In this document: one piece after another, positions 14,971 to 35,277 of the stretch
How the letters are laid out: each line of letters starts with the position of its first letter
How positions within the stretch are numbered: position 1 is the first letter of the stretch
NCBI GenBank assembly: GCA_028277205.1
Contig: JANQGT010000006.1
Location: forward strand, 1-59,735
Direction of reading: 5' to 3'
DNA length: 59,735 bases
Origin: Candidatus Altimarinota bacterium
Lineage (GTDB): Bacteria; Patescibacteriota; Gracilibacteria; BD1-5; UBA2023
Program-made: the position numbers and the translations under genes
The notes under the pieces: model-generated
The model's database searches: none
Told to the model about the DNA's origin: nothing
Seen by the model: the letters and a program-made list of their open reading frames with translations, nothing else

Positions 14971-15571
14971 GTACACAGATAATAATACTAACCCTCGCAT
15001 CATAGCACACTCTCCGGATTTTCGTCAAAATCCGAAAAATCGCACTAAAATACTTCAGATATTTCGCTAATTCATCTGGACTACTCGGCTCGCTCTCGAA
15101 ACACGCATCGTGATATTCGACTTCTTTTATCATCGTGATATGATATATAACATCACTCCTGCCGCCTGCGATCTTGTCGATGAATACCGCTTTGTTTTCA
15201 CGATGAATTTTAGTCGTTTAGAGCTTTCAGCTCGTCGAAATGTGTCCATACGATCCCAAGTGCAATCAGAGCATTTTGCCTACGAAATACGCAAAAGAAG
15301 CACTGAATCAAAGAATTGTTTTCAAACGGTGAAAAGGTACCGCCGCATATTTTGTGTGATCGTCTGCGACAGAATAGTCGGTCAGGCTGTAACCGTGTGA
15401 ATACGTGCATTCCAAAAGTTGCTGACACAAATGGTGAAAAACGCTTTTTATTCGAAAAAATCCGTTCTCCGACCAGGGATTCAACACTGCATGCCAACAG
15501 GACCTACCCAAAAAAATCGAACTGAAAACCTGTATTGAAAGCACTGCTTGCGATTTTGTCCCTCTGATACT

Positions 15572-21571: not shown

Positions 21572-22453
21572 TTACTGCTCGTCATGTAAATGCGATTCGT
21601 CTTCTTCGTGAGTATGCTCGCGATCATGATCGTGATGACGGTCGTGATCGTGGGCGTGATCATGATCGTGGGCGTGCTCGCCGCCGAAAGTGTGTAAAAG
21701 CGAATTGAATCCAAATACAAATCCTATCCCCACGAGGATGAGTAAAAATCGCAGGATATCCCGGATGCCCCCCTCGCGTCATCGCGAGAGCGGCATCATA
21801 TCGGACAGTGCGATGTAGAGGAGTCCTCCCGCATTGAAAGCGATGAGGATGGGCGTGATCCGATCGATCGAATCGAGAAACGGATACATCGCAAGCGCTC
21901 AAAAAATCCCGCCGCTTGCGGCGACGGAGTACGAAAGAAATGATCCGCGATTCATGACGTAGTTTGCAAAATTTTGCGGGAGCGCGTGCAGCAGGATCAC
22001 CACCGAGAGCAAAATCCCCGTCTCAAAACCGGCTGCAAACCCGGTATACAGGACGATACCGTGAAAGCCATTATGTAAAAAAGTCCCCATATTCATGAGC
22101 GTCCCGTGATGCGAGTGCGCATGGGCGATGCTGTCGTCGCGAGGGTGATCGCCATCGCCTCTCACATGGGAAAGGTCATGACAGTGATGATAGTGCACGA
22201 GCGTCTCGACGAGCGCGAAAACAAGCACCCCCGAGAGTAAAAATATCGCAAACTCCTCTCCGGAGAGCTTTGCGGACGCCTCGGGGAGAAATTCAAAAAA
22301 GACAGTCGCGAGGATCGTCCCAGTAGCAAAAGCGACAAACCACGAAAACGCCGATATGATGCGATATCGCAGGGGCAAGAGCGCGAACGCGATACAAACG
22401 AGAAGGAGGGTGATACCGACATTCGCGACAAGCGAAGAAAGCCAGAAAGTCAT
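21572..22453 (-). CDS. ZIP family metal transporter with His-rich loop and tail
   Basis: FATGTILA...LPEA, LHNGFHG, LLHALPQ, AGGLLYIALSD; C-terminal HAHDHDHAHDHDRHHDHD; two TGA. Confidence 0.9.
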
Positions 22454-22697
22454 AGAAATCAAAAAAAGATGCCCCTGCAGTATACCAGAGCCGTCAAGTG
22501 TTTTTGATTTTTCATCGTGAGATTTTAGTATTTGCGCCTCCGATTTCGGGATGACGCTATTATCTGCAAATGCATTGCAGAATAGCAGCATAGTCAAAGC
22601 AATGCTTTCGATATGATTTTTTGGATTTTATTGATACCGTGTCAATATTCCGGTCGGAGAATGATTTTCTCGAATGTCAATGATTTTCTCGAGTATG

Positions 22698-22743
22698 AAT
22701 AACCCCCAGCCGGGAGACAGGGAGTTTTGCGCGGAAAATATAA
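22698..22743 (+). repeat. Dispersed ~45-bp hairpin element, copy A
   Basis: AATAACCCCCAGCCGGGAGACAGGGAGTTTTGCGCGGAAAATATAA; similar to 23720-23764 and to the reverse strand of 35585-35631. Confidence 0.7.
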
Positions 22744-23030
22744 GCCGGTATCCGGACTTCTTCGACGAAAAAGCGCTTTTTTACTATACTGTATCAATTT
22801 GTATCATTTGTATCAATAGATTCTGGTCACTCTTCACTCATCCAAAATACCTCATTATCTACAGCTGTGATCGTGATTTTATCGCAGGCGGTTAGAGAGC
22901 TTTACTCTCAAATTTTATGTGCGAACTTTTTATACTTCCGGCATTTTACCGGTATTTCCATAAATCCCCCTTGTATTTTAAGGAAAAACCTCATACACTG
23001 CCGGGGTGATTATTTTCCATCCATATTATT

Positions 23031-31905: not shown

Positions 31906-33165
31906 TTATGCAGCCGCGTTTTCGTATATGGGGAATCGACGGCAAAGCGTGCGCATTTGCTCGCGGAGTGTGGCGATCATTTGCGGATTTTGTCGATTTC
32001 GGATCGCCTCGCTCATGATGTGCGCGATGGTGTGCATGTCCTCCTCGCGCATGCCGCGAGTCGTGACAGCGGGCGTCCCGATACGCACTCCCGAGGGATC
32101 GACGGGTTTTCGCGGGTCATTCGGGACCATATTTTTATTGAGCGAGATACCGACTGATTCAAAGATAGCTTCGGCTTCTTTTCCGCCGATACCGAAATTT
32201 CGATATACATCGGCGAGAAAATAGTGTGTATCCGTCCCGCCCGATACGATACGAAATCCTTCTTTTGAAAGTGCGTCCGCAAGCACTTGCGCATTGAGAA
32301 TGATTTGTTTAGAATATTGGCGAAATTCCGGCTTCGCCGCTTCGAGAAATGCTACCGCTTTAGCGGCGGTCACATGATCGTGCGGTCCGCCCTGTACGCC
32401 CGGAAATACCGCTTTCGCGATTGCTTTTGCATACTGCTGTTTTGCCATGATCATGCCACCGCGCGGTCCGCGGAGCGTTTTATGCGTCGTCGTCGAGACG
32501 ACATCACATATCGGCACGGGGTTTTCCAGCGCTCCTCAGGCGATGAGCCCCGCGGTATGCGATATATCAGCGAAGAGAACGGCACCAATCGCATCGGCGA
32601 TCTCGCGAAATCTCTGCCACTCGACGAGTCGGGAGTAGATCGTATATCCGGCGATGATCATCTTTGGGCGGTGTTCGAGCGCCAGACGCTCTACCTCGTC
32701 CATATCGATGCGCTCCGTCTCGGGATCCAGACCGTAGGGAATGACATTGTAGAGCATCCCGGAAAAATTCACAGGATGTCCGTGTGTCAAGTGTCCTCCG
32801 TGATCGAGCGACATACCGAGAACGGTATCGCCGGGAGAGAGTATCGCCATATAGACTGCGAGATTCGCGGGAGAGCCTGAAAGCGGCTGGACATTGACAT
32901 ATTCGGCACCAAAAAGCGCCTTTGCGCGCTCGATGGCAAGACTCTCGACTTTATCGACGACTTCATTTCCCGCATAGTAGCGCTTTGCGATATATCCTTC
33001 GGAGTATTTATTGGTAAAGACGCTCCCAAGCGCCTCGAGCACGCCGGGTGAGACGGAGTTTTCGGATGCGATGAGCTCGATGCCATCTTCTTGGCGTTCT
33101 CGTTCTTCGGCGATGAGTGCGGCGATCTCGGGATCGGTGGTGGTAAGTGGCTGGCTGAGAAACAT
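31906..33165 (-). CDS. glyA: Serine hydroxymethyltransferase
   Basis: [28 protein letters not shown](TGA=G), [13 protein letters not shown]. Confidence 0.98.
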
Positions 33166-33570
33166 GATTTGAAAAATTTTAGAAAAACAAGTGCTGTCAA
33201 TGATATTCAAACACTACCCCCCCGTTTCCGAGCGATGCCTGATACTCCTTTCTTCCGTGAGTGTCGAGACGGATGTACATGAGCTGTATCGGTATAAAAA
33301 GGCAGGAAATTTTCACGAAATTGTACCGAAACATGGAGCGTTTACAAGCAAAAATACAAAAGAATCCGAAAGCGAAAAACCGGCTTCCCTCGAGGAAAAC
33401 CGGTATCGAAAGATGCTGTATATCGGGCTTTTCAGAGTCTGGGGGCTATCGGTATAAATAGTGAAAAAGCGCTTTTAGCGAAAAAATCGGATACCGGTTT
33501 ATTTGAGAAAATTTGTTCTCCGACCGGGATTTCGATGCTGTATGTCACAGAGTCCGATTGTCATCGCGAC

Positions 33571-33813
33571 AGAAGCACCACGACCGCAATCGGGGTGAGT
33601 GGATTGCAGCGAGCAGAGTATGCCCGATTGGAGAGTAGGAGTACGCAATTACAGTCGGAGGTGAGTGAGTGGATTGCGGTGTGCGCGAGATTCACGACCG
33701 CGGTAGGAAGTACGCAACTACAGTCGGGGGTGAGTGGATTGCTCGACTCTCGAAGAGTTCCCGGCATAGATAGAAGTACGCAACTACAAGTCGGAGGTGA
33801 GTGAGTGAATTGC
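33571..33813 (+). CRISPR. Degenerate CRISPR-like repeat-spacer array, 4 repeats, no cas genes in window
   Basis: Repeats at 33571-33607, 33636-33677, 33704-33742, 33771-33813 (consensus TAGRAGTACGCAACTACAGTCGGRGGTGAGT[GAGT]GGATTGC), separated by 28/26/28-nt spacers. The repeat structure is certain; CRISPR identity is not. Confidence 0.4.
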
Positions 33814-33894
33814 GGTTTTTTTGTGAGACTGATCCAAAAATCGTGTGAAAATATGTCGCGGATCTGTAGTCGTAAATACTGTCTTTTAGAGAAT

Positions 33895-35277
33895 CTATTC
33901 TCCATCAGACTCGGGGGACTCAGGGGATTCGGGAGTATCATCGGACTGCCCACCCGCAAGCAGCGCTATCTGCGACTGTGCCGCATCGAGCCCCGCGATC
34001 CGATCGCCCGCCTCGATCCACGACTGCAGGATCACCTCGGCGACCGCACGCTGGCGATCGTACTGACTGTCATAGTCCTCATCCTGAAAATCAACCACTA
34101 CATCCGGCGTTATGCCGACTTCATTGATCTGGTCTCCGCCGGGTGTGAGCCACTCGGCGATGGTGATCTTCACTTCACTGCCATCCGAGAGTACGAAAGG
34201 GCGCTGGACCGATCCTTTGCCGAATGTGTTTTGTCCCACGAGCACTGCGAGTCCGTACTCGCGAAGTGCTCCGGCGGTGATCTCGGATGCGGATGCCGAG
34301 TTTTCATTGACGAGGACGACGACGGGAATATCGGGGAGTGTATTGCCGAGTGAAAAAAAGCTCTCGTTTTGTCGCGGATCGCGATATACCGTCCGAACCA
34401 AGAGCTCGTTTTTCTCGATAAAATTCGAAAGAATGCCGACCGCCGTCTCCAGAAATCCCCCGCCGTTATCCCGTAGATCCAGGACGAGTCCGTTTACACG
34501 CTCGTCGAGGACGAGTTTTTGCAGCTCGGTCTGAAATTCGCGATCGGTATTTTCTCAGAAAATCGAGAGGAAAATATACCCCGTCCCGTCATCCGTGATT
34601 TCCGAGGAAACGGAGGGAATCGTGATTTTCTGTCGGGTGATGGTTTTCGTAAATGTCTCATTTTCCTCTGGGCGGATGATCTCGAGCTCGACGACAGTCC
34701 CCGCAGGACCGCTGATCTCCTGCACCGCCTCCGCAGTAGAAAATCCCGCAAGACCCGTCTTGTCGGCGCGTACGATGATATCTCCCGCCCGCAGATTATT
34801 TGCCTTTGCGGGAGAGCCGGCGATGATCCGCTCTATCCTGACTCCGAGCTCGTGAGTGGCGATGACCGCCCCGATTCACTCGAAATCTCCCGAGAGCACA
34901 TCATGAAATACTTCGGTCTCCTCGATATCAAAATACTCGCTATAGCGATCATCGAGACTCTCGACAAATCCTCTGACCACTCCCTCCTCGAGCTCCCGCG
35001 AATCAAGGTACTCATAGTCGATATAGTGCTCCTGTACGATATCGTATACCTCGGAAAGGAGATTGAGATCAATTTTTGAAAATGTCTCTAAAGAAGCGGG
35101 ATCGGCTGAGTCCAAAGTAGCTCCCCCCTGTCTCTGCGAGAGAAACGAATCCGCCGCGCGAGAAAGATACAGCTCGTCAAAATACGCATCAATATCGGAG
35201 TACTCTCAGAGTAGCAGTCCAAACGAAAATGAAAATCCGAGAACGACGACACTGAGAAAGATGTGAAACAATCTCAT
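33895..35277 (-). CDS. ctpA: S41 family carboxy-terminal processing protease
   Basis: FE(TGA=G)IGAVI, PDZ domain, LVLDLRDNGGG, NENSASASEI, TFGKGSVQ, GITPDV. Confidence 0.93.

Follow-up and report, generated by a model that had tools for sequence, protein, structure and literature searches.

A repeat-insert array between ctpA and glyA possibly built by off-target CRISPR spacer integration

We describe a short array of repeats and inserts between the genes ctpA and glyA of a Candidatus Altimarinota bacterium (NCBI GenBank assembly GCA_028277205.1), within a stretch of 59,735 nucleotides (nt) of contig JANQGT010000006.1, which is called the window here; the contig holding the window is designated C37, and the other contigs of the assembly bear similar designations. 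Four repeats alternate with three inserts of about 30 nt, with the same period as the CRISPR array on contig C43 of this genome. Two of the three inserts match unrelated protein-coding genes, and the repeat lacks significant similarity to the repeat on C43. The explanation that we favour, at a confidence just short of even, is that spacer integration of the CRISPR type gave rise to the array, in all likelihood through off-target insertion by the resident Cas1-Cas2 proteins (a neo-CRISPR), and that it is now decaying.

Architecture of the array

The boundaries between repeats and inserts were set with the help of the homology that the inserts show to their source genes and are uncertain by about ±4 nt (Table 1). 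From R1 to R4 the units measure 36/30/40/29/36/30/41 nt, compared with 36 nt plus 29-31 nt in the resident CRISPR array, and the repeats of 37-43 nt and spacers of 26-28 nt that a first-pass annotation had given are corrected to 36/40/36/41 and 30/29/30 nt, a boundary shift of 3-4 nt. The four repeats themselves stand where that annotation placed them, with start-to-start spacings of 69 and 66 nt at the 5' side: a 22-nt core pattern matches three times (at 33645, 33714 and 33780) against no match in 100 shuffles, and Tandem Repeats Finder (TRF) reports a period of 66/70 with 2.7-3.2 copies and 74-75% matches. R1 is a full-length copy and not a truncated one. Placed in register with R3, it agrees at 6/7 of the first nucleotides and 16/16 of the last, and only the middle 13 nt differ; this middle contains CACGACCGC, which is present also in S2. 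The alternation noticed at first pass is equally real, with GGGG(G) and GTGAGT in R1 and R3 and GGAGG and GTGAGTGAGT in R2 and R4. R4 is chimeric, its 5' half resembling R3 (GAAG, C) and its 3' half R2 (GGAGG, extra GAGT), a reticulate pattern that points to conversion or recombination among the copies. Part of the repeat is palindromic.

Secondary structure in the array is weak. In the hairpin earlier proposed for the repeats, R1 and R2 fold better than their shuffles on the + strand (z = -2.8 and -2.5), R3 and R4 are at z ~0, and values on the minus strand are comparable. The array as a whole folds insignificantly (z = -0.8 on the + strand and -0.6 on the - strand), and across the folds computed for the array and for 33375-33600, z ranges from -0.6 to -1.6 without reaching significance. 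The T run that had been reported after the last repeat is present and immediately follows R4; the terminator scan does not call it, and together with an R4 hairpin it would make a weak terminator on the + strand. Searched against Rfam at E<=10, the two strands of 32900-34200 return only chance-level matches to snR79 (E 0.3) and GNAS-AS1_3. The upstream region, described earlier as A-rich, is only moderately AT-rich (39-47% GC), with an A skew confined to the surroundings of 33300-33450.

Table 1 Features of the array, its flanks and the resident CRISPR-Cas locus. Positions are those of the window unless a contig is named.
Feature	Position	Strand	Description
S0	33542..33571		The 30 nt that precede R1; local similarity to S1
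R1	33572..33607		36-nt repeat; middle scrambled
S1	33608..33637		30-nt insert; CAGAGT..CCGATTG common to S0
R2	33638..33677		40-nt repeat: 36 nt and one slippage unit, GAGT
S2	33678..33706	- (sense)	29-nt insert; SPFH/Band-7 segment
R3	33707..33742		36-nt repeat; length equal to that of the resident CRISPR repeat
S3	33743..33772	- (sense)	30-nt insert; matches C2:9251-9284
R4	33773..33813		41-nt repeat: 36 nt plus A plus GAGT
T7 run	33816..33822	+	Directly after R4; not called by terminator scan
Dispersed intergenic motif copy	33445..33544	+	~100 nt; directly upstream of array
Terminator-like hairpin	33379..33404	-	Strong (11 bp, 6 G-C) with T-run; glyA-ward side of array (terminator scan)
Sigma-70-like promoter match	33320..33347	-	TTGTAA-16-TACAAT; upstream of glyA
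glyA	31906..33165	-	Serine hydroxymethyltransferase (SHMT) by Pfam; one in-frame TGA
ctpA	33895..35277	-	S41 peptidase with PDZ domain, C-terminal protease (Pfam)
Type II locus	C43:11510-17420		cas9 (1102 aa), cas1, cas2, 17-repeat array, anti-repeat
Resident array	C43:11655-12740		16 identical 36-nt repeats and one degenerate copy
tracrRNA-like anti-repeat	C43:11510-11541		28/32 complementary to resident repeat; just upstream of array

Source genes of the inserts

S3, in sense on the minus strand, matches a segment of a giant open reading frame (ORF) of 4329 amino acids (C2:3531-16520, 38 in-frame TGA codons), a 200-amino-acid piece of which was tested and has no Pfam match. The alignment is identical at 26/30 positions in the insert and 29/34 with four flanking nucleotides, includes a 12-nt perfect stretch, and has a BLAST E of 2e-5 for a 40-nt query; its score is 24, whereas the best of 200 shuffles reaches 19. 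The likeness breaks off precisely at the border with R4, and no relation is seen between the flanks.

S2 corresponds to an SPFH/Band-7 gene. Its first 25 nt agree at 23/25 positions with this gene in relatives of the same family, where they encode AVVNLA(Q/H)T, and matches to a Band_7/SPFH gene at 21-23 of 23-25 nt occur in 7/204 genomes of the order, these seven representing 5 genera. The match begins at the first base after R2. The organism's own SPFH gene (C39:3860-4732) agrees at 18/23 positions, and all five mismatches fall at third codon positions, which indicates true coding homology and is characteristic of functional coding copies that have diverged. The boundary coincidence and this codon pattern add independent weight beyond the E-value of the match.

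On these alignments, the view that at least two of the three inserts were captured from protein-coding genes is supported. Inserts homologous to two unrelated genes are something that plain tandem duplication cannot explain, and the earlier caveat that the array might be a degenerate tandem repeat is set aside on this ground. Global similarity among the inserts is not above that of shuffles. For S0 and S1, no source gene was detected in this genome, in 204 genomes of the order or in 400 of the phylum; S0 could be either an earlier unit or sequence native to the site. A comparison of the inserts with phage and plasmid sequences, of the kind that the first-pass annotation had proposed, gave only E=1 BLAST matches outside the inserts, or none.

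A resident type II CRISPR-Cas locus with the same geometry

Searches of the whole genome for cas gene families match contig C43 only, in agreement with the earlier statement that the window holds no cas gene. Cas1 and Cas2 have one match each in the genome, both on C43, and the ORFs of Cas1, Cas2 and Cas9 are intact; the Cas9 matches RuvC_III, HNH_4 and the alpha-helical lobe, the last below the Pfam cut-off. The adaptation module is thus present as intact genes and is predicted to be in working state. A G-rich hairpin and a T-run follow the anti-repeat, which resembles a trans-activating CRISPR RNA (tracrRNA). The resident repeat ends in GTACAAT, of the hexamer type seen in the -10 boxes of the tRNA promoters of this genome. 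Among the 15 resident spacers, 12 are of 30 nt, two of 29 nt and one of 31 nt. The 31-nt spacer, spacer 3, matches 31/31 positions in a Peptidase_U32 gene of the same assembly (C45:9669-9699) and is either a self-targeting spacer or a sign of strain mixture in the bin; from this match, the resident machinery appears to take chromosomal DNA.

The array on C37 shares the dimensions of this locus. In a TRF scan of the genome at periods >=40, a period of 66 occurs only at the C43 CRISPR and the C37 array, and the other loci have periods of 42, 45/60 and 132-150. In sequence, by contrast, the two repeats are not significantly similar: the best local alignment is 9/10, and 333/2000 shuffles are as good. 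Therefore no pairing with the resident anti-repeat is expected, and the resident Cas9 and tracrRNA cannot use the array. No other anti-repeat for the C37 repeat was found in the genome, and the suggestion of a trans-acting CRISPR array made at first pass is not supported. No similarity to the resident leader is seen at the array. Set in register against the resident repeat's reverse complement, R3 agrees at 15/36 positions (binomial p=0.02, without correction), and GTAC occupies corresponding positions in both, a weak likeness that may serve as a lead only.

Measured against a canonical CRISPR array, the C37 array has unique spacers of uniform length, two of the three from other DNA; cas genes, either adjacent or cognate with the same repeat, and a repeat family seen in other arrays were not found in the searches described here. 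Measured against a neo-CRISPR, it has an adaptation module in the same genome and block and insert lengths equal to those of the resident array. The first-pass reading of a decayed CRISPR array is thus kept as to the CRISPR geometry and the gene origin of at least two of three inserts, and modified to that of a stray array that is probably newborn and by now in decay.

Origin of the array

We infer that the resident type II Cas1-Cas2 would have inserted off-target into the region between ctpA and glyA, formerly non-CRISPR DNA, and that a 36-bp stretch would have been duplicated with each ~30-bp insertion of other DNA. Later neutral decay would have introduced the GAGT slippage, the 1-nt indel and the few substitutions. 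The array would now be inert, with any transcripts unable to pair with the resident tracrRNA. The position of the array bears on this proposal. ctpA lies directly upstream of glyA, on the same strand, in 23/29 of the relatives' glyA loci fetched, and the region between the genes spans 0-404 nt (median 81) in these 23 syntenic relatives, compared with 729 nt here, both genes being on the minus strand and the array lying between them; therefore the array sits in lineage-specific extra DNA.

An alternative that shares much of this evidence is that a genuine CRISPR array belonging to a second CRISPR-Cas system, now lost, would survive as a relic of three spacers and decaying repeats. The geometry and the gene-derived inserts also fit a relic, the most degenerate copy is R1 at the end of the array, as is often the case for terminal repeats, and the repeat's partial palindrome also suits it. 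The searches for longer arrays that had been proposed at first pass speak against it, however: the repeat does not occur elsewhere in this genome, a covariance model of R2-R4 finds nothing better than E 0.13 in 88 genomes of the family, which is chance level, and the 22-nt core has no exact match in the public collections viral_contigs, genome_contigs and metagenome_contigs (from which records of this genome may have been left out). Nor does a whole-genome search, in a genome about 93% complete, detect a second Cas1, Cas2 or RAMP protein, and Cas3 yields nothing above cut-off; Cas12a is likewise without a match, although that search says little because its control also had none. Moreover, the ctpA-glyA pair is tight in the 23 relatives, so that a whole cas locus would need to have come and gone. 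We regard the relic as unlikely. Because the repeat is unrelated to any known array in these searches, a single adaptation module with matching geometry is present and the site is lineage-specific, off-target integration is favoured over it.

Several observations weigh against off-target integration, and part of them would also fit a tandem duplication in which short templated insertions took the place of the linkers, by a template switch at microhomologies, the copying of ~30 nt from another gene and a return to the repeat. The likeness of S1 to the sequence before R1, observed at first pass, is confirmed (CAGAGT..CCGATTG; local alignment of S0 and S1, p=0.002, 3000 shuffles), and fainter local similarity links S0 with S2 (p=0.049) and S1 with S3 (p=0.064); these likenesses point to some unit duplication. 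The chimeric R4 is not explained by integration alone and, like the ABAB pattern and the residual similarity among S0, S1, S2 and S3, agrees with duplication. R2, R3 and R4 differ pairwise by 2-3 substitutions and by indels of 1 nt and 4 nt. At the junctions, TTGC to the left of S3 in relative G092, TA to the right of S3, and AGGAAG two bases to the right of S2 in SPFH genes are identical between array and source, which suggests that homology-guided (microhomology) insertion may fit instead. The matches of S2 and S3 to their sources are imperfect; by E-value alone S2 reaches only ~0.07 over 204 genomes, and in a control over 400 genomes of the phylum the best chance E was 0.001. By eye, no common flank of the inserts that could represent a protospacer adjacent motif is seen, one resident protospacer being known. 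A single-copy progenitor site was not found in the relatives' ctpA-glyA regions, and three successive integrations at a pseudo-site without a proper leader would be unusual. Yet templated insertion provides no ruler, while the inserts of 30/29/30 nt and the block of 36 nt have the resident values, and the genome-wide TRF scan shows no other such locus. Templated insertion therefore seems to us rather improbable, and off-target integration remains the explanation that we prefer; as a claim from one genome, it is a lead, short of demonstration.

A further possibility is that the locus works as an RNA, transcribed from the + strand between the dispersed motif upstream of the array and the T7 run, with inserts antisense to the mRNAs of the SPFH protein and the giant protein and hairpin scaffolds between them. 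On this strand S2 and S3 are indeed antisense to their source genes, S3 has its 12-nt perfect stretch against the organism's own gene, the motif precedes same-strand genes elsewhere, and the T run follows R4. However, S2 pairs with the organism's own SPFH mRNA at only 18/23 positions, no mismatch being a wobble, both targets lie deep inside ORFs, and the locus shows no significant fold, no Rfam match and no conservation in any relative, so that we consider a working RNA of this kind improbable. Less probable still is a Cas-independent antisense cassette array, in which a lineage-specific promoter element would drive a + strand RNA whose 30-nt fragments of the organism's own SPFH and giant surface-protein genes, set between hairpin scaffolds, would tune those mRNAs; such an array would have been made by CRISPR and co-opted for endogenous regulation without an effector nuclease. 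Nothing supports the Cas-independent guide or small-RNA array that the first-pass annotation offered in general terms. A sponge of the CsrB/RsmZ type was rejected, as CsrA was not found (PF02599, 0 matches in this genome, which is 93.4% complete), and so was an array like ToxI of type III toxin-antitoxin systems, since what follows on the + strand is the 3' end of ctpA in antisense and on the - strand the terminator and then glyA. The family PF07282, searched on account of TnpB and its omega-RNA, was not found in this genome.

That the array encodes a tandem repeat of protein was a caveat of the first-pass annotation, which pointed to STQLQ repeats; it is considered here on either strand and with genetic code 25. 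The corresponding frame exists (ORF 33535-33804), longer open frames run over 33535-34476 on the + strand and 33342-33959 on the - strand, and the unit lengths are close to multiples of three. These frames nevertheless overlap ctpA or cross the terminator hairpin, the 4-nt and 1-nt indels shift conserved bases from frame to frame among the units, and the codon scores of all six frames fall below zero: in a model trained on the long ORFs of the genome, the log-odds are at best -0.11 and -0.13 for the array, compared with +0.21 for glyA and +0.26 for ctpA. A coding origin is thus hardly credible.

Genomic setting

The genome measures 1.06 Mb in 52 contigs. It uses code 25 (TGA = Gly), as judged from glyA: its open frame requires one in-frame TGA to be read as glycine, and the glyA genes of 37/38 matched relatives contain 1-31 in-frame TGA codons. 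TGA thus appears to be read as a sense codon in this genome and throughout its order.

The promoter match upstream of glyA is of the same type as the tRNA promoters of the genome, and the ctpA transcript may read through the array and stop at the terminator-like hairpin. The motif directly upstream of the array has seven copies in the genome, at 33445-33544, 22702-22797 and 15418-15493 of the window and at C39:32509-32614, C43:3266-3372, C50:537-634 and C25:15056-15156, and is nearly confined to it, with two weak partial matches in 88 family genomes. At least two other copies lie upstream of a same-strand gene, such as a ZIP-like gene (21575-22597) and a DinG-like helicase gene on C43. The motif may bear a promoter, which could be aimed into the array, or may be like a miniature inverted-repeat transposable element. 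It was ruled out as a structured RNA, given a consensus energy of ~0, and as the start of a small protein, given that the peptides from a shared ATG are unrelated. The idea of a replication origin was also dropped, there being no turn of GC skew near 33.5 kb.

Between the repeat and the relatives' ctpA-glyA regions there is no significant similarity (p>0.15). The sequence after R4 (33806-33845) matches in 7 genomes of the order, in different contexts and at E 0.006-0.05 per genome, and these matches are taken as chance. A search of metagenome contigs for close syntenic relatives by way of CtpA returned 43 loci, all distant, none exceeding 41% identity over the greater part of the protein; higher CtpA identity occurs there only on short fragments, and the best GlyA among GTDB relatives has 66%. 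Two DNA sequencing runs of one study, one of them probably the source, were identified for this sequence, and no RNA run was listed. Contigs from the second run end at 33633 and resume at 33949. A comparable gap in the first run falls within ctpA, so this break is uninformative on strain variation.

In 11/23 syntenic relatives a conserved ORF of 12-16 codons, absent from the window, lies right after ctpA. Six of these ORFs are of the type MFYxxNPNxRLD (loci L011, L014, L015, L016, L018 and L030) and five of the type MNYxxTxKLxL (L019, L026, L027, L028 and L032). In all six of the former, the only type aligned, a hairpin and T-run lie 3' of the ORF, just before glyA. The ORF could be a leader peptide of an attenuator or a micro-protein. 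A likeness by eye between the C37 repeat and this ORF was discarded (p>0.15, and no nhmmer match). In relative G014 (locus L010), the ctpA-glyA region of 404 nt resembles, by eye, part of a gene for a NUDIX-type hydrolase.

Comparison with known systems

If our explanation is correct, the array would be a natural snapshot of a CRISPR array arising on non-CRISPR DNA by way of a Cas9-type adaptation module. Its host would be a tiny-genome bacterium with code 25, and inserts from chromosomal genes would be tolerated since the array cannot arm Cas9. A type II case would broaden the view of how repeat families originate, and it has a bearing on the frequency with which adaptation modules leave scars in genomes. 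That a spacer of the canonical array perfectly matches a housekeeping-type gene of the same assembly fits a system that samples self DNA.

Within the genome itself, the resident array is alike in its period of 66, its 36-nt repeats and its spacers of 29-31 nt. It differs in having 16 identical repeats beside cas9, cas1 and cas2 together with an anti-repeat, whereas the array on C37 has four diverged repeats and no anti-repeat. Orphan arrays, self-targeting spacers and degenerate repeats are reportedly the subject of work by Stern et al. from 2010, and orphan arrays normally keep a repeat of a known family that is common to other genomes. With such arrays the one on C37 has in common the lack of adjacent cas genes, the degenerate repeats and the inserts matching chromosomal genes; unlike them, it has a repeat without a relative in any collection searched.

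In the type II-A system of Streptococcus thermophilus, off-target integration by Cas1-Cas2 takes place at sites that resemble the junction of leader and repeat, and the repeat is fixed at 36 bp by a ruler element situated near repeat positions 28-32; the off-target events were mostly half-site, in vitro and on plasmids (PMC6895254). Read in one of its orientations, the C37 repeat has G as its first base and GTA at positions 30-32, like the resident repeat. The portions of the S. thermophilus study drawn on here do not describe a natural multi-unit array (PMC6895254), unlike the case of C37.

For the formation of neo-CRISPR arrays, both 10.1101/148544 and PMC7054753 cite Nivala, Shipman and Church (2018). 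According to the sections of these sources used here, the birth of such an array was demonstrated in the laboratory in Escherichia coli type I-E, and natural evidence is circumstantial only. The array on C37 is unlike the E. coli case in that its host is a bacterium of candidate-phyla type with a type II (Cas9) system and code 25, and in that it has three inserts, decayed copies and an origin inferred rather than observed. In both cases, however, a repeat of foreign sequence and resident length alternates with inserts of resident length, at a site away from the cas genes in a genome that holds an adaptation module.

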